Source: an uncultured Clostridia bacterium
GTDB lineage: Bacteria; Bacillota; Clostridia; Christensenellales; UBA1242
Direction of reading: 5' to 3'
DNA length: 54,784 bases
Assembly (NCBI GenBank): GCA_947630075.1
Contig: CANRGF010000001.1
Coordinates: forward strand, 1-54,784
Shown here: positions 3,712 to 41,609 of the stretch, piece after piece
How the letters are laid out: each line of letters starts with the position of its first letter
Numbering within the stretch: position 1 is the stretch's first letter
Position numbers and translations under genes: made by a program
Notes under the pieces: generated by a model
Databases searched by the model: none
What the model was told of the DNA's origin: nothing
Seen by the model: the letters and a program-made list of their open reading frames with translations, nothing else

Positions 3712-4089
3712 CTATCTTAGAAATCTAACAAAATTCTTCACAAGATTTATGCCACCAATAACGCCTTCATCTTCACTACTATTCGTGTCGCCAACGATTT
3801 GTGATTGACGAATAATGTCTTCGATGTTGTATGCCAAGAAGTAGAACAAAGCAACGAGCAAGACAACGACAACGATACCAACGATGACCATAATCAACTT
3901 GGACTTTGCCTCTTCTCTTTCTTGCTTTTCGTCAGCCTTAACGAATTTGATGCCGACCCAAATTGCATAAATAATGCCTGCAACACTCACAACGATTAAA
4001 ATTGGGTTGATAAGGTTAATAACTGCACTAAGCAATGTGTCTAACCAACCATAACCGGTGTTGAATTGTGATGCTAATAAACTGCTCAT
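3712..4089 (-). CDS. Small two-TM pilin-like protein (VirB2/TrbC-like topology; resembles pilin-like conjugal-transfer proteins of Gram-positive/Mollicutes ICEs)
   Basis: 125 aa. Two hydrophobic helices (ILIVVSVAGIIYAIWVGI and LIMVIVGIVVVVLLVALFYFLA) are separated by a charged loop, KFVKADEKQEREEAKSK. RBS is AAAGGGGGGA. Confidence 0.6.
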   Translation of the reverse strand: MSSLLASQFNTGYGWLDTLLSAVINLINPILIVVSVAGIIYAIWVGIKFVKADEKQEREEAKSKLIMVIVGIVVVVLLVALFYFLAYNIEDIIRQSQIVGDTNSSEDEGVIGGINLVKNFVRFLR

Positions 4090-4553: not shown

Positions 4554-4654
4554 GTATTTATACTTTAATATAAATGTTATTTTTTAACTGCCCCCGCGAG
4601 TTTTTGGCTTAAATTATTAATTTAGTTTTTGTTTACTTTTAAAAAGGAGTGATT

Positions 4655-6673
4655 ATGAAACATTTTCTCAAAGTTGGCCTTAAATATGTGATTAGTGCCA
4701 TATTAATCTTCGTGATTACTGTGTTTGCTATCACATATAAAGAGGATGGATATTTTGGCTTTAACATTGAGCATATCAAGCAAGGCATCCCATTTATGTT
4801 TGTGTTTGTGGCGGAAGGATTGTTGCTAGTGTTCGACCTTATGAAGCTTATTGACGGAAAAAATGCTAAAAAAACAAAAAAAGCAGTGGATAAGGTTAAA
4901 GATGAAAAGGGAAAGGACACAAAGCAATATTTCAGCCGCGACTTCTTGACAGATGAAGATATTAAGAAAAATAAGGACTTCAACCCAAACACTCTTGCCA
5001 CACTGCGTTCTTGCAAAAAAGACGGCATTTTGGTTAGAGCAGAGATGAAAGGGAACACCACAGAAATCAACTTCGTGCAGCCAATTCACACGCTCGTGGT
5101 GGGAACAACCTCATCTGGTAAAACACAGCGATTTGTTGTGCCTTCACTGCAACTTATGAGCATGACCGCTGCCAAACCTTCGTTTGTTGTTACCGACCCA
5201 AAAGGCGAACTTTATAGCCTATGCTCAAACAAGTTTAAGTCGGAAGGGTACGAAGTGAAAGTGCTTGATCTACGCACACCATTTGCGTCTGTGCAGTGGA
5301 ACCCACTGACCTACCCTTATGATATGTACACCCGCAGTTTTAATTTGGAAAAGGAAGTGAAAGTCCACCCAGCGGGAGATAATCCGCGCAATTACAATGT
5401 GATGTTGCAACGCCAATTTGATTTTAATAGTCAAGTTTGGTTTGAATTTGACGGAAAAGCGTATGCAGACAAGGAAGTGATGGAAAACGACATCACCATC
5501 CTCAAAAAAGAACTTGAAGATAAGGCATTTGACTCTATCAACGACACTTGCACCACCCTTGCCCCAATCGAATCAGGTAAAGACCCAACTTGGGAAAAGA
5601 CGGCGCAAAACCTAATCAAAGCGGTGATTATCGCCATGCTTGAAGATAGCCGCATTCCAGAATTGGGCATGACCCGTGATAGATACAATTTCTATAATGT
5701 GGCAAAAATTTGTAATATAACCGACTCTGGGCGAGACACTTATGCCACTCTTAAAAACTATTTGTTTAATTATAGAGATAAGTTTTCCAAAGTGGCAGAC
5801 CTTGCCACCACCGCTTTGCAGAACGCAGACACAACCACTAAAAACTATATGGGCTTTGTGTCTAACAAAATGGTTTTGTTTAGCGACACGGGCATAAGTT
5901 TCCTAACAGAAAAAACGGAAATAGACTTCGTTAATCTAGACGAAAAGCCAACCGCAATTTTCCTCATCATTCCAGATGAAGTGAGAACGCGTTATCCACT
6001 TGCAATTCTGTTTGTAACTCAGCTATATAAGAGATTGGTTGAGAAAGCGCAAAGCCTTGGCGGGCATTTAAAACGAAATGTTTACTTTATGCTAGACGAG
6101 TTTGGTAACATGCCAAAATTTCCAGAATGGGGTTCAATTATGACGGTCGGCAGAAGCCGTGGCATATTCTTCGAACTTTGCGTGCAATCTTACAGCCAAC
6201 TTTATCAGGTGTATGGTCAAGACGAAGGCAAGATTATTAAAGATAACTGCCCTATTCAAGTGTATATCGCATCTGAGGACACAACCACAAACAAAGAATT
6301 TAGCGAACTACTAGGCAAGAAAACAGTTGTGCAAGAAAACGAGCAGCGAAGCGTTGGCCCAGACGGCAAAGAAAGCAAAACCTATAACACTCAAACGCTA
6401 TCAATTCCTATTGCCTACCCTGAGCAGTTGCCAACCTTCCGTGATGAAGGAAAGGTTGCAATCAAATCATTCACACCAAACGCAGCATTGAAAACCACAA
6501 TGACTTACGCTTACAAAAACAAATGCTATGACCTAACATCTGTTAGCAGAACATACTCTCAAAAGAGATTGCTTGACGAAGCCAAAGTTTATTACGACAT
6601 CAAGCAAAGAAATTCACTTTTGGGCAAAAATGACAATACTGACGATGATGATGACGATGATGATTTGTTTTAA
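4655..6673 (+). CDS. Type IV secretion coupling protein (VirD4/TraG/TraD-family ATPase)
   Basis: Two N-terminal TM helices. Walker A is VVGTTSSGKTQ and the Walker B-like motif is VYFMLDEFGNMPKF. The C-terminal tail is poly-Asp (NTDDDDDDDDLF). The track start at 4649 is GTG, so I prefer ATG at 4655, which sits 5 nt after AAGGAG. Confidence 0.85.
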   Translation: MKHFLKVGLKYVISAILIFVITVFAITYKEDGYFGFNIEHIKQGIPFMFVFVAEGLLLVFDLMKLIDGKNAKKTKKAVDKVKDEKGKDTKQYFSRDFLTDEDIKKNKDFNPNTLATLRSCKKDGILVRAEMKGNTTEINFVQPIHTLVVGTTSSGKTQRFVVPSLQLMSMTAAKPSFVVTDPKGELYSLCSNKFKSEGYEVKVLDLRTPFASVQWNPLTYPYDMYTRSFNLEKEVKVHPAGDNPRNYNVMLQRQFDFNSQVWFEFDGKAYADKEVMENDITILKKELEDKAFDSINDTCTTLAPIESGKDPTWEKTAQNLIKAVIIAMLEDSRIPELGMTRDRYNFYNVAKICNITDSGRDTYATLKNYLFNYRDKFSKVADLATTALQNADTTTKNYMGFVSNKMVLFSDTGISFLTEKTEIDFVNLDEKPTAIFLIIPDEVRTRYPLAILFVTQLYKRLVEKAQSLGGHLKRNVYFMLDEFGNMPKFPEWGSIMTVGRSRGIFFELCVQSYSQLYQVYGQDEGKIIKDNCPIQVYIASEDTTTNKEFSELLGKKTVVQENEQRSVGPDGKESKTYNTQTLSIPIAYPEQLPTFRDEGKVAIKSFTPNAALKTTMTYAYKNKCYDLTSVSRTYSQKRLLDEAKVYYDIKQRNSLLGKNDNTDDDDDDDDLF

Positions 6674-7316: not shown

Positions 7317-7393
7317 CGCGGGGTGGAGCAGCACGGCAGCTCGCTGGGCTCATAACCCAGAGGTCATTGGTTCAAATCCAATCCCCGCAACCA
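7317..7393 (+). tRNA. tRNA-Met, initiator type (anticodon CAU), CCA encoded
   Basis: The sequence reads CGCGGGGTGGAGCAGC...CTGGGCTCATAACCCAG...GGTTCAAATCC...CCCCGCAACCA. It has the C1-A72 acceptor mismatch and three consecutive G-C pairs in the anticodon stem, both initiator hallmarks. Confidence 0.9.
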
Positions 7394-28369: not shown

Positions 28370-28748
28370 AATTATATTTTACGAATAAACATCGGGTATA
28401 TTTTGATTTACGCAAAATTCTCGTTGACAATATTTTACATATTTCGACAAAATGCTTTTTTAACATAAAAAACTCGCAAAAGCGAGCTTCTATTTTATTT
28501 TGTAGAATACTCCTTTCCGCCAATATAGGTTACACCCTTTTCTATGATTACCTCTTGCTCTTCTTTATCTGCACCTACACTCTAAGATTGGTGATTTCGC
28601 CATTATTATAGTGCAAATAAGCGCTATTCTCTGCGTCATATTCAACAAACACATTTTAGCGAGGATATAAGAAAGTTTTTTATGATTGATTTTTTTAATA
28701 GGCAAAAAATATGAAAATACGCATTTTATTCCGTTGATTATTCATTGC

Positions 28749-28777
28749 TTGACAATTTCGAAAAAATGTGATAATAT
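28749..28777 (+). promoter_or_regulatory. Consensus extended -10 promoter driving the large structured RNA
   Basis: TTGACA (28749-28754), a 17-nt spacer, then TGATAATAT (TAATAT = 28772-28777). Confidence 0.7.
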
Positions 28778-28784
28778 ATAGTTA

Positions 28785-29392
28785 TAGATATTCCTCGTTG
28801 GAATAATCTAGCGGAGGTGCAGTATCCTAGTCAACTAGGCTATGCGAGGATGCCGAAATAAGCATCGCTGGCAAAACTATGAAGTTCGTGGTGCTGGCTT
28901 TGGTTGCCCAAACCGGGGCTGGTGCTGGGAGTTAAGATAGGTGGGTCGCTCATAACGGCATATGGGCCCAAGCCCACCCATCGTGGAGACCTAAGTGGGT
29001 AATTATTAAACATTATTAGATGTTTGCCAAATTATCGCTTGGGATAGGAACCTGCATATGGCGAAAGTTATGTGCAGTGTAGCCTGCTTTGAGTGGTCAA
29101 ATGGGGATAGAGCCAAACGGCAAGGTGAGTTTAAGTACACGACAACCCTTGCAATGCTCTTGAAACTTTGAACGCAAAATTAAGATAAGCATAGTTGATG
29201 TTGTTAAGGAAATCTTCTAGGCTGTGTTCGCAGACGGCGCTTTGGGGATTATAGTGTGGTCTTAGTGGCGATTCGGTGCAAGTTTTGCGTAAAGGGAAAC
29301 CGCTTGACTGGTAACGGGCAAGTGCAAAATTGGGAAATCCAACCGAACCTTATGCCGCAAGGTTTACTCAAAGCGTTGCCTTCGTTTTTTTT
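28785..29392 (+). ncRNA. Large (~610 nt) structured non-coding RNA; candidate OLE (ornate, large, extremophilic)-class RNA; 3' end uncertain
   Basis: No ORF of at least 60 aa on either strand. The region is locally more GC-rich than its flanks and has a consensus promoter. Hairpins are dense. One is a 17-bp helix, 28889-28905 / 28911-28927, with 9 G-U pairs that would be A-C mismatches on the minus strand. Another, 29052-29060 / 29069-29077, is capped by GCGAAAGT. Others are AAACAT/ATGTTT at 29008-29025 and AACCTT/AAGGTT at 29346-29364. CCCACC (28973-28978) can pair either with GGTGGG (28940-28945) or, as ACCCA, with TGGGT (28996-29000). A T8 run lies at 29385-29392. A 4-TM DxxxD protein gene lies directly downstream. 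Confidence 0.55.
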
Positions 29393-29510
29393 AAAATAAC
29401 GCTTAGGCGAAAATATAAAAAATTTAAAAAAGCAAAAAAAAATTGCAAAATCTCATGAAATTTTAATGAAAAATTGCAAAAATGAAAAATTTTTTGCCAA
29501 AAAAGGGAAA

Positions 29511-30065
29511 ATGAAAAACGAAAATAAACCAAAATCAAACAAACCAAAATCTTGGGTGTGGCCAGTGAAAGTGCTAGTCCTCGCCATTTTTTTGTCATTT
29601 AGCTTTGGACTAATTAGCGAATTAGTTTTAAGCAATGCATTTGTTGCAGTGTCGATAATTGTGATTGTGATATTTATTGCTGTAAGTATATTTTTTGATA
29701 TGCTCGGTTTAGCCGTGGCATCGGCAAGCATTGAAAATTTCAACGCTATGGCAGCAAGAAAAGTGAAAGGTGCCAAGCAGGCAATATCTTTGGTGAAAAA
29801 TGCGGATAAAGTAAGTTCAATCTGTGCGGATGTGATAGGCGATGTGTGTGGCATTCTCTCTGGTGCGGCAGGCGCAAGCATTTTGGCAAAAATTAGTTTT
29901 GGCGGGAATTTTCAAGAAATCTTAATTGCTTCTATCATCTCTGCCATAATTGCCGGGCTTACAATATTTGGCAAGGCGAGCACAAAACGCTTTGCAATAA
30001 ATCATGCAGATAGCATCACCCTAAAATTCGCAAAATTTATAAATTTATTCACTCATAAAGATTAA
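29511..30065 (+). CDS. Four-TM membrane protein with DxxxD motif; OapA-like (OLE-associated protein A) candidate
   Basis: I prefer the ATG at 29511 after AAGGGAAA over the track start at 29466. The protein is 184 aa with four hydrophobic helices. The motif ADVIGDVCG (D107/D111) lies in the third helix. Confidence 0.7.
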   Translation: MKNENKPKSNKPKSWVWPVKVLVLAIFLSFSFGLISELVLSNAFVAVSIIVIVIFIAVSIFFDMLGLAVASASIENFNAMAARKVKGAKQAISLVKNADKVSSICADVIGDVCGILSGAAGASILAKISFGGNFQEILIASIISAIIAGLTIFGKASTKRFAINHADSITLKFAKFINLFTHKD

Positions 30066-30105
30066 AAAAACGCAACAAATGCGTTTTTTGTTGCGTTTTT
30101 GTTTT
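30064..30105. terminator. Bidirectional terminator region (two overlapping hairpins)
   Basis: AACGCA (30069-30074) pairs with TGCGTT (30080-30085), followed by a T-run. Alternatively, AACGCAACAAA (30069-30079) pairs with TTTGTTGCGTT (30087-30097). Confidence 0.7.
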
Positions 30106-30834
30106 TTATAATGTGAGACCGCCGTCCACTGTTATAATTTGACCGGTTATAAAACTAGCACTTTCGCTAGCTAAAAACTCCACAACATTTGCCACATCGC
30201 TCGGTTTGCCAATTCGGCTTATTGGTGTGGCCGAAATAATCTCTGCCAAATCTGCCTTTGAATATCCTTTGTTCATCTTTGTGTCTATTAGTCCGGGGCT
30301 AACAGCATTCACTCTAATGTGTGAAGGAGCAAGTTCTTTTGCAAGGCTCTTGGTTAGGCTATCTATTGCGCCCTTGCTTGCTGAATACACACTCTCCATG
30401 CTCGCGCCAACTTCTCCCCACATTGAAGATATATTGATGATATTGCCCATCTTTTCACTCACCATGTGTGGCACAACATGTTTTATTAAAAACACGCTCC
30501 CCTTCACATTAACGCCAAAAACGAAATCAAAATCGCTTTCGGTTACATCTTGAATTAGCCTGCTCTGAGCCACGCCTGCGGCATTCACCAAGCAATCAAT
30601 GCGCCTATATTTTTTTATCACATCAGCAACGACCTGCTTAACTTGTGTTTCAAGGCGGATGTCGCACTGATAAGCCGCCACATCCGTGATTTGAGCCAAC
30701 TCGGTGCACAACTTTTCAATTCCTTTTTTATTTTTATTGTAAATCAACAATAGCCTATATCCTAGGCTTGCAAATTTTCGGGCAATTTCACTGCCAATTC
30801 CACCACTTGCCCCGCTAATTAACACATTTTTCAT
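30106..30834 (-). CDS. SDR-family oxidoreductase (3-oxoacyl-ACP reductase-like)
   Basis: Contains SGASGGIGSEIA (TGxxxGxG), NAAG and the catalytic YSASK. 242 aa. Confidence 0.9.
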   Translation of the reverse strand: MKNVLISGASGGIGSEIARKFASLGYRLLLIYNKNKKGIEKLCTELAQITDVAAYQCDIRLETQVKQVVADVIKKYRRIDCLVNAAGVAQSRLIQDVTESDFDFVFGVNVKGSVFLIKHVVPHMVSEKMGNIINISSMWGEVGASMESVYSASKGAIDSLTKSLAKELAPSHIRVNAVSPGLIDTKMNKGYSKADLAEIISATPISRIGKPSDVANVVEFLASESASFITGQIITVDGGLTL

Positions 30835-37002: not shown

Positions 37003-39639
37003 TTATTTTGCTCTCACCTTCTCTTTTTTTATTTTATGCCTTTTTATATAGATTGAAGGATTTTTATTTAAAATTGCTTTGAAGAGTTCGCAGGTCGGCA
37101 CGATTAAAACAGATGCAATTATCACCACCAGCCATTGTGAGAAATTTAAAAATTCCAAACCAAACAAGGCATACATCGGCGGAACAACTGCCACTGCCAA
37201 ATTTATTGCAAGCGTGAGAATGAAGCAAAAGTTGAATGTTTTATTATCAAACAAATTTTTTTCAAAAATTGAATTGTTGGTTTTGCAATTCACACTGTGC
37301 AATAGTTGCATGAAAATGATTGTGAAAAACACCATAGTGCTCGCCTCTGCAGGAGAATAACATTTCACTCCCACAATAAACACAACCATAACAATCAGCG
37401 TTTGCAAAATTGACTGATAAATTATTGCCACACCCGTTATGCCACCAAACAGTCCCGCCCGACTATTGCGCGGTGGCGATTGCATCACTTCCTTTTCCAC
37501 CTTTTCCATGCCAAGAGCAAAGGCAGGCAAGCTATCTGTAACCAGATTTATAAATAACATTTGTGCAGGCAATAAAAATGTTAAATTCGGGAAGAACAAA
37601 AGCGCAAGCAACATTCCAAACACTTCCACGCAATTTGTTGAAATTAAAAATTGCAGTGCCTTTTGAATGTTTGAATATACCTTTCTCCCTTCCTCAACAG
37701 CCACAATGATTGAAGAAAAGTTGTCATCCGTGATAATTAAGTCTGCCACATTTTTAACCACATCACTGCCCGATTTGCCCATGCCCACGCCTATGTCTGC
37801 AATTTTTAGGCTTGGAGCATCGTTCACTCCATCGCCCGTCATTGCCACAACCTTTTGTAAATTTTTGAAGGCTTTAACAATTCTCACCTTATGCTCTGGG
37901 CTTACTCGAGCATACACTGTGAATTTGGTGCAAATTCTTTTAAGTTCTGCATCGGTTAGCCTATCAATTTCTTCCCCAGAAATCACTTCGTCTATCGATT
38001 TTGCAATTCCTAGTTCGCTAGCAATGGCAAAAGCGGTTTTTTTGTGGTCGCCCGTTATCATCACAGGTTTTAACCCTGCCTTAAAACATTTTTCAATGCT
38101 GGATTTCACCTCTGGGCGCGGATTGTCTATCATGCCAGCCAAACCTAAAAACACCATGTCGCTTTCAGGCTCGTCGTTAGGGCTAAACACATCAAATTTT
38201 TTTGAGCAAAAGCCCATAACTCGAAGTGCCTTAGAAGTCATTTCATCGTTCACTTTTTTTATTTTTTCAATGATTTCATCCGTTATTTGCTCAATTTTGC
38301 CATTAATTTTTATAAATTTGCATTTTTTTATTAAAATTTCTGGTGCACCTTTTGCCAAACATTTCACTCCGTCATCATTAACGATAACCGACATCATCTT
38401 CCTAATTGAATTAAAAGGAATTTCATGCAGCACCTTCATTTCTTGCCCAGAATAATATTGATTTGCAAATTCAAAGAGCGCACTTTCGGTTGGCTCTCCA
38501 ACCACCTTGCCATTCTCTAATTTTGAATTGTTGCAAAATTTCATGCACTTTAAAATTTCGTTAAATGTGTCGCCCTGAGTTAAATCATATTGCCAATCGA
38601 AAAAAGTTTTCACCACCTGCATTTTGTTGCGAGTGAGAGTGCCTGTTTTATCCGTGCAAATAATTTCGCAACTGCCAAGAGTTTCCACCGCGTGCAAATG
38701 CTTAATAATACATTTCCTTTTTGCCAACTGCTGCACGCCCAACGCCAAAATTATTGTTATCACCGCTGGCAAACTTTCTGGAATGGCAGCAACAGCCAAC
38801 GCAACTGCCGTCATTAGCGGATTTAAAAATCCATTGCCTGCCACCATCTCAATCATGAAAATCACTAAGCAAATTGCAACCACTGACCAAGTGATTATCT
38901 TGCCAATTTTTTCAATCGATTTTTGAAGTGGTGTGGTCTGCTTTTGAGCATTGAAAAGCAGATTGGCAATTTTGCCAAGCTCTGAGTCTGCACCCGTTGC
39001 CACCACCACACCGCGTGCTTTTCCGCTCGTTATCATGCTGCCAGAATATGCCATGTTTTTGCGCTCTGCGAGTGGTGTGTTTTTGCTTAAAACCAAATCA
39101 GCATTTTTTTCAACGGGCACACTTTCACCCGTTAGGCTACTTTCATCGCATGAAAAATTGTTGGCATCAATCAGGCGAACATCTGCCGCCACCACATTGC
39201 CCGCTTCCATTTCAACAATGTCGCCGGGGGCGATGTCTTTGCTATCAACAGTAATAAGATTGCCTGCCCGCACAACTTTAACAGTCATTTTTTCGCTTTT
39301 TGCAAGGTCATCAATGCAAGCCTGCGCCTTGTTTTCTTGAAAGACGCCAATAAGAGCATTCACCACCACAATAAACAAAATCACAAAGCCTTCAAATAAG
39401 TCGGCATATTCCTTGTTCACTATGGCGATTGTAAGAGATACCACAGCCGACACAAGCAAAATTGCCACCATAATGTTTAAAAATTGCTTAAAAAAACACT
39501 TAATAAACGATTGTTTCTTCGTTTTTTTTAATTCATTTTTGCCAAACTTTGCAAGCCTTTCGCTCGCTTCTTTGGGCATTAACCCTTTTGAAGATGAATT
39601 AAGTTGTTTTATGGCATCAAAACTATTCAAATAATGCAT
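37003..39639 (-). CDS. Cation-transporting P-type ATPase (Ca2+-ATPase-like, P2 type)
   Basis: Contains TGES, the phosphorylation site CTDKTGTLT, TGDGVNDAP and IPESLP in TM4. I prefer the ATG at 39639, since the track start at 39690 is TTG. Confidence 0.92.
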   Translation of the reverse strand: MHYLNSFDAIKQLNSSSKGLMPKEASERLAKFGKNELKKTKKQSFIKCFFKQFLNIMVAILLVSAVVSLTIAIVNKEYADLFEGFVILFIVVVNALIGVFQENKAQACIDDLAKSEKMTVKVVRAGNLITVDSKDIAPGDIVEMEAGNVVAADVRLIDANNFSCDESSLTGESVPVEKNADLVLSKNTPLAERKNMAYSGSMITSGKARGVVVATGADSELGKIANLLFNAQKQTTPLQKSIEKIGKIITWSVVAICLVIFMIEMVAGNGFLNPLMTAVALAVAAIPESLPAVITIILALGVQQLAKRKCIIKHLHAVETLGSCEIICTDKTGTLTRNKMQVVKTFFDWQYDLTQGDTFNEILKCMKFCNNSKLENGKVVGEPTESALFEFANQYYSGQEMKVLHEIPFNSIRKMMSVIVNDDGVKCLAKGAPEILIKKCKFIKINGKIEQITDEIIEKIKKVNDEMTSKALRVMGFCSKKFDVFSPNDEPESDMVFLGLAGMIDNPRPEVKSSIEKCFKAGLKPVMITGDHKKTAFAIASELGIAKSIDEVISGEEIDRLTDAELKRICTKFTVYARVSPEHKVRIVKAFKNLQKVVAMTGDGVNDAPSLKIADIGVGMGKSGSDVVKNVADLIITDDNFSSIIVAVEEGRKVYSNIQKALQFLISTNCVEVFGMLLALLFFPNLTFLLPAQMLFINLVTDSLPAFALGMEKVEKEVMQSPPRNSRAGLFGGITGVAIIYQSILQTLIVMVVFIVGVKCYSPAEASTMVFFTIIFMQLLHSVNCKTNNSIFEKNLFDNKTFNFCFILTLAINLAVAVVPPMYALFGLEFLNFSQWLVVIIASVLIVPTCELFKAILNKNPSIYIKRHKIKKEKVRAK

Positions 39640-39761
39640 AAAATAATCTATTATCCGTGAGCAGTAAATAGAACTTTTTGCTTTTGCCAATTTCTCATTT
39701 TAACCTTAATAATCGATTTGAAAATTTAAAATTTTATGCTAAAATATATTCGAGGAGTTTT

Positions 39762-41609
39762 ATGACTGAAAAAATTAATGCAATAATAAACAACTTCAAC
39801 GGAAAAGAGAAAAAGAAAATGGACGATTTTTTGTCCATCATGGCAGACATAGGCTTAAAAGATGACTTCGTGCTTTCTGGGCTCATATATTTCTCTTTGC
39901 GTGCAAAAAATGTCAGCTTAGATGATCTGCAATCTAAATGCTCTCCTGAAACTTTGAAAATGGTTGAGACACTAATTAAGTTAGACAATATAAATTTTGA
40001 GCAGCAAAATAGCGAGGCTGAGAACTTGAGAAAAATGTTTTTTGCAATCACAAAAGACATTCGCACTATAATGCTGAAAATTGCCATTGTTGTGGCAGAC
40101 GCAAGAAATTTAGAAAATCTCACAAACGAGCAAAAGCAGGACTTTGCCCGAGTGATTTTTTCGCTTTATGCTCCGCTTGCCGCCCGCCTAGGTTTGAGCG
40201 CATATAAAACAGAGCTTGAAGAAGCAGCTTTTAAAATTGAAAATCCAAAATTGCAGGAAGAAATTCAAGCGGAAGTGGACAACCGCTATCATCACCGCGA
40301 GCCAATCGTGGAACGATTAAAAACACTTGTGAATAATTGTATGCACGAATTAGGCATTAATGGGCGAGTGTATGGCAGGAAAAAACACATTTATAGCATT
40401 TATAAAAAGTTGCAAGACCACTCATTTGATAATATTTATGACCTTATTGCTGTGCGTGCTATAGTTAGCACAGTGGCAGAGTGTTACGCTCTGCTTGGCA
40501 GGCTTCACTGCGAAGTTGAGCCACTTCAAAATAGATTTAAAGACTATATTGCCACGCCAAAGCCAAACGGCTATCAATCATTGCACACCACCGTTTTATT
40601 TGAAGGGTTTCCTGTGGAAATTCAAATCAGGACAGAGGACATGAACAAATATGCCGAATATGGTGTGGCAGCGCATTGGCTTTATAAAGAAAAAGGGCGC
40701 AAGCGCGACACACTTGATGCCAGCCTAGGCTACCTGCGCTTAATGATGGAAAGCGAAAATGTGAGCATCGATGAACTTGCCGATTCGCTTAATCAGGACA
40801 TTTACAATAACGAAATTTTCGTGCAAACGCCAAAGGGAAAGGTGATTTATCTTCCTTCTCAATCCACCCCGATTGACTTCGCTTATTGCATACATAGTGA
40901 AGTGGGCAACCGATGTGTTGGCGCAAAGGTGAATGGCAAAATGGTGCCAACCACCACCCTTCTAAACAATGGTGATGTGGTGGAGATTATCACCAACCCA
41001 AATTCAAAAGGCCCATCACGCGATTGGCTTAAAACCTGCAAAACCGCAGGGGCAAAAAAAGAAATAAATCTTTTCTTTAAGCGAAACATGAAGGAAGAAA
41101 ATATTCGTCTTGGCAAATCAATGCTAGAAAACGCAATTAAGGAGAAAGGTTATTCTGTGGCAAAACTCACCGAAAAGAAAAATTTGGATGAAGTGCTGCC
41201 ACAATATAATCTGACCAATTCGGACGAACATTACGCAAGCCTAAGCACAAACGCCTATCCTATCAAAGCGGTTGTGAACAAATTAGTTAGTTTATATCAA
41301 AAGCAAATCAAAACTGAAACTCTAAGCGCCACCACCCCAGAAAACAATGTTCGCCTAGCCGCTCCAAGCGAGAAATTAATTGCCGTGAAAGGGCTAAACA
41401 ACATATTGATGCGCTTTGCAAACTGCTGCCACCCTATGTATGGCGACAAAATTGTTGGCTTCATTTCAGCTGGGCGAGGCATAGTTATCCACCGCGCCGT
41501 TTGCCCAAATGTTAGTTATTTCGATAATTCACGCCTAATTGAAGCCAGTTGGAAGCCAAATGTGGATCTAAATGGCCACAAAAAGAAATCAAAAGAAGAG
41601 AGAAAATAA
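39762..41609 (+). CDS. RelA/SpoT-homologue (p)ppGpp synthetase with a degenerate hydrolase domain
   Basis: The synthetase motifs are intact (GRKKHIYSIYKKL, YDLIAVRAIV, DYIATPKPNGYQSLHTTV, EIQIRTEDMNKYAEYGVAAHWLYKE). TGS and ACT-like C-terminal domains are present. I prefer the ATG at 39762 after GAGGAG. Confidence 0.9.
   Translation: MTEKINAIINNFNGKEKKKMDDFLSIMADIGLKDDFVLSGLIYFSLRAKNVSLDDLQSKCSPETLKMVETLIKLDNINFEQQNSEAENLRKMFFAITKDIRTIMLKIAIVVADARNLENLTNEQKQDFARVIFSLYAPLAARLGLSAYKTELEEAAFKIENPKLQEEIQAEVDNRYHHREPIVERLKTLVNNCMHELGINGRVYGRKKHIYSIYKKLQDHSFDNIYDLIAVRAIVSTVAECYALLGRLHCEVEPLQNRFKDYIATPKPNGYQSLHTTVLFEGFPVEIQIRTEDMNKYAEYGVAAHWLYKEKGRKRDTLDASLGYLRLMMESENVSIDELADSLNQDIYNNEIFVQTPKGKVIYLPSQSTPIDFAYCIHSEVGNRCVGAKVNGKMVPTTTLLNNGDVVEIITNPNSKGPSRDWLKTCKTAGAKKEINLFFKRNMKEENIRLGKSMLENAIKEKGYSVAKLTEKKNLDEVLPQYNLTNSDEHYASLSTNAYPIKAVVNKLVSLYQKQIKTETLSATTPENNVRLAAPSEKLIAVKGLNNILMRFANCCHPMYGDKIVGFISAGRGIVIHRAVCPNVSYFDNSRLIEASWKPNVDLNGHKKKSKEERK

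Follow-up and report, generated by a model that had tools for sequence, protein, structure and literature searches.

The 54,784-nucleotide (nt) stretch of DNA analysed here, from an uncultured Clostridia bacterium and referred to below as the window, carries at positions 28749-30100 what is almost certainly a two-gene ole-oapA operon of anaerobic gut Clostridia, encoding the core of the OLE ribonucleoprotein particle. Among bacterial RNAs that still lack a known biochemical function, OLE is one of the most intriguing; it is now thought to form a membrane-spanning dimer with the protein OapA. The initial annotation of this stretch, made from the letters alone, had proposed an OLE RNA/OapA-like locus here and had suggested a covariance-model search, a search for OapA similarity and an alignment of homologous loci; the proposal is borne out by the match of the RNA to its Rfam model and by the motif, fold, position and sequence similarity of the protein. 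The RNA and the protein belong to the OLE and OapA families, and the RNA structure, the promoter preceding the RNA gene and the adjacency of ole and oapA are all conserved among relatives.

When the whole window was scanned against all 4,227 Rfam families, only OLE (RF01071) and one tRNA (7317-7390) scored above threshold; no other family matched at the RNA, ROOL, GOLLD, raiA, RNase P and tmRNA included. The OLE match, which defines the ole gene, occupies 601 nt of the plus strand (28798-29398) and scores 345 bits (gathering score, 50; E-value, 8.7e-98). It spans model positions 1-616 of 616 and is not truncated. The longest open reading frame on either strand within these limits encodes 57 amino acids, in agreement with the earlier statement that none of at least 60 amino acids exists there; a mechanical 76-amino-acid frame on the minus strand (29368-29598) reaches only into the final 30 nt of the RNA and into the spacer that follows. 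The local guanine-cytosine (GC) enrichment noted at the same time is also real, the RNA having 45.9% GC compared with 37.2% window-wide, which places it in the top 1.5% of 600-nt windows.

Relatives were assembled as 80 loci from species-representative genomes, fetched via their OapA homologues, together with four assemblies whose OapA is 96% identical to that of the window. Note that the window OapA has no exact match in the assembly collection, and that the 96%-identical protein P0001 was used in its place. These 84 related loci (individual loci are cited as L001, L002 and so on) were searched for OLE-like sequences by iterated nhmmer; 80 of them have an OLE RNA immediately preceding the oapA homologue on the same strand, and Rfam confirmed OLE in eight related loci, with scores of 183-465 bits. 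Projected on the window RNA, the model structure comprises 147 pairs, 126 of them standard. We then aligned the OLE RNAs of 30 relatives, which are 50-86% identical to the window RNA, and compared the covariation with that in two kinds of controls, namely structures in which the 3' partners were slid by 1-3 columns and 500 shuffles. Covariation was strong: the Rfam structure is 82.6% paired across the 30 relatives versus 40-45% in the slid controls, both partners have changed in 106 of the 147 pairs, and covariation scores 0.484 versus 0.10-0.15 in the slid controls, with none of the 500 shuffles reaching the observed values. OLE RNAs characteristically have about 25% of their positions in strongly conserved blocks; here about 140 columns are invariant across the relatives, and the AUGAAGU, GUAGC, GGAAAC and UUUAC blocks are all present in the window. 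From this covariation and pairing we conclude that the window RNA is a genuine, structurally constrained OLE RNA.

The gene downstream of ole, oapA (29511-30065, plus strand), was defined from its open reading frame, its Pfam match, its homologues and its predicted fold, and encodes 184 amino acids. An in-frame ATG at 29466 would yield a protein of 199 amino acids; most OapA homologues measure 182-185 amino acids, so that the ATG at 29511 is favoured. The protein scores 34.9 bits against the Pfam CNNM/DUF21 family (PF01595; cut-off, 28.4). As read earlier from the translation, it has four putative transmembrane segments and an ADVIGD motif: the hydrophobic segments lie at about residues 17-41, 44-71, 105-127 and 134-157 and the motif at residues 106-111, while the AlphaFold2 model (mean predicted local distance difference test score, pLDDT, of 77) displays long helices at residues 16-41, 45-71, 98-128 and 134-164. 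The D107-V-I-G-D111 stretch is invariant in 81 of 81 homologues. Only three PDB entries were matched with confidence by Foldseek, namely the archaeal CNNM protein MtCorB (7M1T and 7M1U) and the CorC transmembrane domain (7CFG), with a probability of 1.00 and a template modelling score (TM-score) of 0.5-0.6. One of them, 7M1U, was reported as a top structural match for Halalkalibacterium halodurans OapA, in a study that also gave the DxxxD motif as the feature setting OapA apart from CNNM domains (Fernando & Breaker, PMC11332333). The CorB/CorC link needed the predicted structure, since the PDB sequence searches were weak: the single protein gave a CorB match with an E-value of 0.02 and the profile gave none. 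No NCBIfam model matches the protein.

The OapA-similarity search gave a direct match to a published OapA, with 31% identity over 175 residues and an E-value of 8e-26, the DVIGD of the window protein aligning with the NDVIGD of the reference. This reference sequence was machine-read from the PDF supplement of PMC12286853 (Kretsch et al. 2025), in a passage that leaves the species unstated. Thus, by motif, fold, position and direct similarity, the downstream protein is OapA. Like described OapA proteins, it has the DxxxD motif, four helices and lysine-rich cytoplasmic segments and is devoid of CBS/CorC domains (PMC11332333), although its identity to the reference OapA is only 31%. It also shares a CNNM-like fold with the CNNM/DUF21 domain of the MpfA/CorB/CorC Mg2+ transporters, whereas true CNNM transporters possess the cytosolic CBS/CorC domains that it lacks. 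Separately, L028, L061 and L070 contain an oapA-like gene (36-44% identical), with no OLE detected by nhmmer or Rfam within about 6 kb on either side; these could be stand-alone OapA-like proteins, or ole could lie elsewhere in the genome.

The RNA displays the succession of elements expected of OLE, all on the plus strand; the helix names used here are provisional, being assigned from element order and published descriptions. From the 5' end, we distinguish (i) a hairpin with an A-rich loop (28849-28866), which the Rfam structure, the element order and published descriptions designate as the probable P4, the A-rich L4 loop being a dimer contact (PMC12265935); (ii) a long G-U-rich hairpin, P5/P5.1 (28885-28931), with a conserved GCCCA loop; (iii) the P6/P6.1 hairpin (28936-28982), whose 3' strand is CCCACCCA and whose loop contains CGGCAU; (iv) the P7 hairpin (28990-29043), the length of which varies among relatives; (v) the P8 hairpin (29052-29077); and (vi) the long P9 arm (29086-29185). 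The 3' domain (domain 2, 29236-29377) is closed by an 11-bp long-range helix (29236-29246 / 29367-29377) and contains a P12.2-like helix (29272-29277 / 29342-29347), P14 (29281-29288 / 29324-29331) and P14.1 (29302-29323), the GUAA loop of which (29311-29314) means that a secondary GNRA loop is kept in the window RNA. These elements are read from the Rfam structure, with additional support from covariation for P5/P5.1, P6/P6.1, P8 and the 3' domain.

The G-U-rich helix singled out by the initial annotation (28889-28905 / 28911-28927) is part of the longer Rfam helix of P5/P5.1 (28885-28905 / 28911-28931), which contains 20 pairs, 19 of them standard and nine of them G-U. This helix is 93.5% paired across the 30 relatives, and 15 of its 20 pairs have changed on both sides. 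The G-U richness of the hairpin (alignment columns 95-142) is itself conserved: several positions swap G-U for U-G and not for a Watson-Crick pair, as seen at columns 106/131 (GU 15, UG 14) and 109/128 (UG 12, GU 11). The flanks of P5, AUGAAGUU and GGGAGUUAAG, are invariant at most positions among the 30 relatives. The OapC-binding kink-turn (k-turn) at P5 is formed by flanking nucleotides (PMC9723947), and the two flanks together are predicted to carry the k-turn-forming nucleotides.

An alternative pairing had also been proposed around CCCACCCA, as a sign of a pseudoknot or a switch. This proposal did not hold, as the pairing with GUGGGU (28976-28981 / 28995-29000) is not conserved in the 30 relatives: it is complete only in the window and in L006, the closest relative having this region in the alignment, and decays without compensation in the others. 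The documented alternative structure near P6 is the switch between P6 and the k-turn (PMC9723947). The GAAA-containing hairpin recognised earlier fared better, since it coincides with P8, a modelled OLE stem in which 11 of 13 pairs are standard. Note that L044 lacks exactly the P7-P8 span and corresponds to the published 'variant 2'.

The predicted apical loop of the P9 arm, UAAGUACAC, contains the self-complementary tetramer GUAC (29135-29138). The corresponding tetramer is GGCC in 42 relatives, GUAC in the window and four relatives of its clade, GCGC in one relative and AGCU in another, so that all the tetramers found are self-complementary. A kissing loop at P9 has been seen in the OLE homodimer by cryo-electron microscopy (PMC12286853, PMC12265935); a palindrome that changes yet stays self-complementary fits this dimer contact.

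The main departure from the OLE model lies between positions 29277 and 29281, where the P13 hairpin is deleted, model positions 479-499 being reduced to 2 nt. These positions form a bulged hairpin with a GUGA-type tetraloop, which is intact in L017 and likewise absent from L006, L007, L008, L010 and L013. P13 is the primary OapB-binding site (PMC7936274), and OLE variants that have lost the OapB site are reported in gut clades (PMC11332333); therefore, the missing P13 does not exclude membership of the OLE class. Judging from the deletion, the particle of this clade probably does not use OapB at the usual site and, by analogy with the studied particles, the P13-less RNA probably forms a particle with fewer protein partners. 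The window contains no homologue of the OapC and bS21 reference sequences, a result that is uninformative because the corresponding genes are unlinked to ole in the model organism.

Apart from P13, the window RNA resembles the full-length OLE RNAs of H. halodurans and Clostridium acetobutylicum in its length of about 600 nt, its coverage of the full model, its conserved sequence blocks, the P4-P9 order, the long P9 with a self-complementary loop and the domain comprising P12.2, P14 and P14.1, as well as in the proximal promoter and the position of oapA immediately downstream. It differs from them by the absence of P13, with its GNRA loop and bulge, by a P9 palindrome that is GUAC and not GGCC, and by a longer leader. 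With the OLE 'variant 1' of gut TANB77-type Clostridia (Fernando & Breaker 2024, PMC11332333), it shares the gut Clostridia host and the loss of the OapB element. However, the shortening of P7, P8 and P9 is what defines variant 1, whereas those of the window RNA are about full length (601 nt in total, versus about 545 nt for short relatives such as L018-L021 and others), and the whole P13 stem is gone in the window RNA, not just the loop nucleotides. With its full-length P7-P9 and no P13, the window RNA thus sits between the 'full-length' and 'variant 1' types (PMC11332333). As a separate observation, the OLE of a chicken-gut metagenome-assembled genome (MAG; L080:5202-5576) measures only 375 nt and scores 183 bits with full model ends; it lacks most of the middle of domain 1 and is far more reduced than the published variants as described.

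The ole gene is preceded on the plus strand by a sigma-70-type promoter (28749-28777) that consists of a TTGACA -35 box (28749-28754), a 17-nt spacer and a TAATAT -10 box (28772-28777), extended as TGA-TAATAT by a TG at 28769-28770; its score is 10/12. The initial annotation had described this promoter as perfect, which is true of the -35 box; the -10 box, however, matches TATAAT at only four of six positions, and the promoter is therefore better called strong-looking. Its position predicts a transcription start at about 28784-28786. A promoter scoring at least 10/12 occurs within 60 nt of the conserved 5' motif in 57 of 71 related loci, compared with 2.2% of random positions, and the gap from the end of the -10 box to the motif is 11 nt in 48 of those loci. 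The window and its nearest relative have a wider gap ahead of this conserved GUGCA motif, of about 39 nt instead of about 11 nt; the 5' leader exceeds the usual length by about 25-28 nt, and the short added segment can form a small hairpin. A proximal promoter is also known to raise OLE expression more than 100-fold in B. halodurans (PMC3413148). This precedent and the 57 relatives refute the idea, put forward at the outset, that possession of its own promoter makes the locus non-canonical.

Between ole and oapA extends an A-rich spacer (29399-29510, 21% GC), in which our scan found neither a plus-strand promoter nor a canonical terminator. The sequence AAAATTGCAAAA occurs in this spacer as two exact copies 31 nt apart, at 29439-29450 and 29470-29481; there are three copies window-wide, against 0.63 expected. 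The sole canonical terminator of the ole-oapA unit comes after oapA: a bidirectional intrinsic terminator (30066-30100) with a 14-pair stem and T runs on both strands, which serves oapA and the convergent SDR gene.

Two observations weigh against the interpretation of the region as an intact ole-oapA operon. Firstly, a U8 tract found 7 nt after the last OLE helix could partly terminate transcription before oapA. We rejected this tract as a terminator, given its distance of 7 nt from the helix, the fact that the scan did not call it and its lack of conservation in close relatives. Secondly, some relatives score higher (up to 465 bits, versus 345 for the window RNA), the difference being due to the lost P13 and to the poor alignment of the apices of P7 and P9. 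As the scan found no plus-strand promoter or canonical terminator between ole and oapA and the U8 tract is not conserved in close relatives, the two genes are most likely co-transcribed.

The locus could then work as follows. The strong sigma-70-type promoter would drive synthesis of the OLE RNA of about 600 nt, and the transcript would read through the A-rich spacer into oapA and presumably end at the 30066-30100 terminator. By analogy with the H. halodurans and C. acetobutylicum particles, the RNA would fold into two domains and dimerise by loop-loop contacts. OapA dimers would bind this RNA and anchor it at, or through, the membrane; the resulting particle may support tolerance to alcohols, cold, excess Mg2+ and poor carbon sources, as proposed from the characterised systems (PMC12265935, PMC10898510).

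That a single promoter and a single terminator seem to serve both ole and oapA, no canonical terminator intervening, would also be expected if the structured region were only a long, riboswitch-like 5' leader acting in cis on oapA, and not a stable RNA acting in trans. We consider this very unlikely: the RNA belongs, at full length, to the OLE class, B. halodurans OLE is abundant, unusually stable and binds OapA (PMC3413148, PMC12265935), and a spacer that measures anything between about 20 and about 390 nt, depending on the relative, is ill-suited to a leader that acts on a ribosome-binding site. No more probable is a decaying, non-functional OLE remnant, despite the deletion of P13, the lower score and the several non-standard pairs that appear in the apical regions of P7 and P9 under the Rfam alignment. 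Against decay, the invariant OLE nucleotides are intact, the P13-less form persists in six to seven relatives whose identity is only 76-86% and which show compensatory changes elsewhere, the promoter is kept, oapA is intact with its invariant motifs, and P7 folds well by itself (minimum free energy, -17 kcal/mol; z, -4.1). Finally, another large ornate RNA (ROOL, GOLLD, raiA, RNase P or tmRNA) or a missed protein-coding gene is already refuted by the Rfam scan and the list of open reading frames, in which only OLE and the tRNA pass the thresholds and no frame of at least 60 amino acids lies inside the RNA, and nothing was found in its favour.

A functional ole-oapA operon being the preferred interpretation, we also considered its surroundings. 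Upstream of ole are genes for FtsH, CvpA, TyrS, YchF, UppP, a GNAT acetyltransferase and an XRE-type regulator; downstream of oapA are the convergent SDR gene, two genes of unknown function and genes for GltX, a metallo-beta-lactamase-fold protein and a P-type ATPase. The SDR gene (30106-30834, minus strand) matches the NCBIfam equivalog for the EF-P 5-aminopentanone reductase YmfI (272.9 bits versus 238). Among the relatives, direct adjacency of this gene to oapA is limited to the closest ones, L005 and L006, and a homologue lies about 5 kb away in L008. Only about seven close relatives share the CvpA-TyrS-YchF-UppP block, and even among these the downstream side is rearranged; the remaining 70 or so loci contain none of the neighbour genes of the window. 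In the 96%-identical relatives, a 740-amino-acid gene with a weak Pectate_lyase_5 match stands between the GNAT/XRE pair and the ole promoter (L001:6824-9046 and L002:6775-8997), at a place where the window has only a 380-nt intergenic region (28370-28748). The closest loci all originate in gut MAGs assigned to uncultured Clostridia, Christensenellaceae or Clostridium; the best of them, CANQDP010000008.1, has a 96%-identical OapA. These loci point to a host of the kind expected for OLE, which occurs in anaerobic or extremophilic Bacillota.

The initial annotation had stressed a non-canonical setting, between an XRE/GNAT pair and an SDR gene and outside the isoprenoid-gene operon. These neighbours are indeed present, but so few relatives share them that the neighbourhood seems to reflect gene shuffling at the level of the clade and not a new arrangement with functional meaning; accordingly, we assign no function in this context to the XRE, GNAT and SDR genes. 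Similarly, the neighbourhood does differ from the isoprenoid-gene operon, although uppP, which encodes undecaprenyl-diphosphate phosphatase, lies two genes upstream. OLE was reportedly described in 2006 in a nusB/folD/xseAB/ispA/dxs-type cluster, and the position of the window locus outside such a cluster is a further difference from full-length OLE loci. Overall, ole-oapA behaves as a self-contained module amid a shuffled neighbourhood.

Two other regions of the window deserve mention. Within about 10 kb downstream of ole-oapA are a P-type cation ATPase gene (37003-39690, minus strand) and a gene for a RelA/SpoT-family (p)ppGpp synthetase/hydrolase (39678-41609, plus strand), whose products relate to stress response or metal homeostasis. 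At the other end, the tRNA (7317-7390) has as neighbours a minus-strand gene for a type IV secretion pilin (3712-4089) and a plus-strand gene for a VirD4/TraG-type coupling protein (4649-6673); this arrangement, at the left end of the window, resembles the border of an integrated conjugative element.

OLE RNAs have been catalogued in 2,822 Bacillota genomes, gut clades included (PMC11332333). Since Rfam annotation finds the locus and the OLE RNAs of gut Clostridia have been surveyed (PMC11332333), there is nothing categorically new in it: it is a locus of a known kind, a routine member of a well-catalogued family. Its value is comparative, as it illustrates that loss of P13 is compatible with full-length P7-P9, that the P9 palindrome shifts from GGCC to GUAC, GCGC or AGCU with self-complementarity kept, and that a proximal promoter is near-universal for ole genes in the clades examined. 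We suggest tentatively, with slightly less than even confidence, that this clade maintains a full-length OLE RNA devoid of the entire P13, encoded in a free-standing ole-oapA operon outside the usual cluster, and that its particle is OapB-independent if OapB is lacking. If so, the clade would provide a natural OapB-independent, full-size OLE particle, between the full-length and the reduced variants, which would help to define the minimal protein set of OLE.

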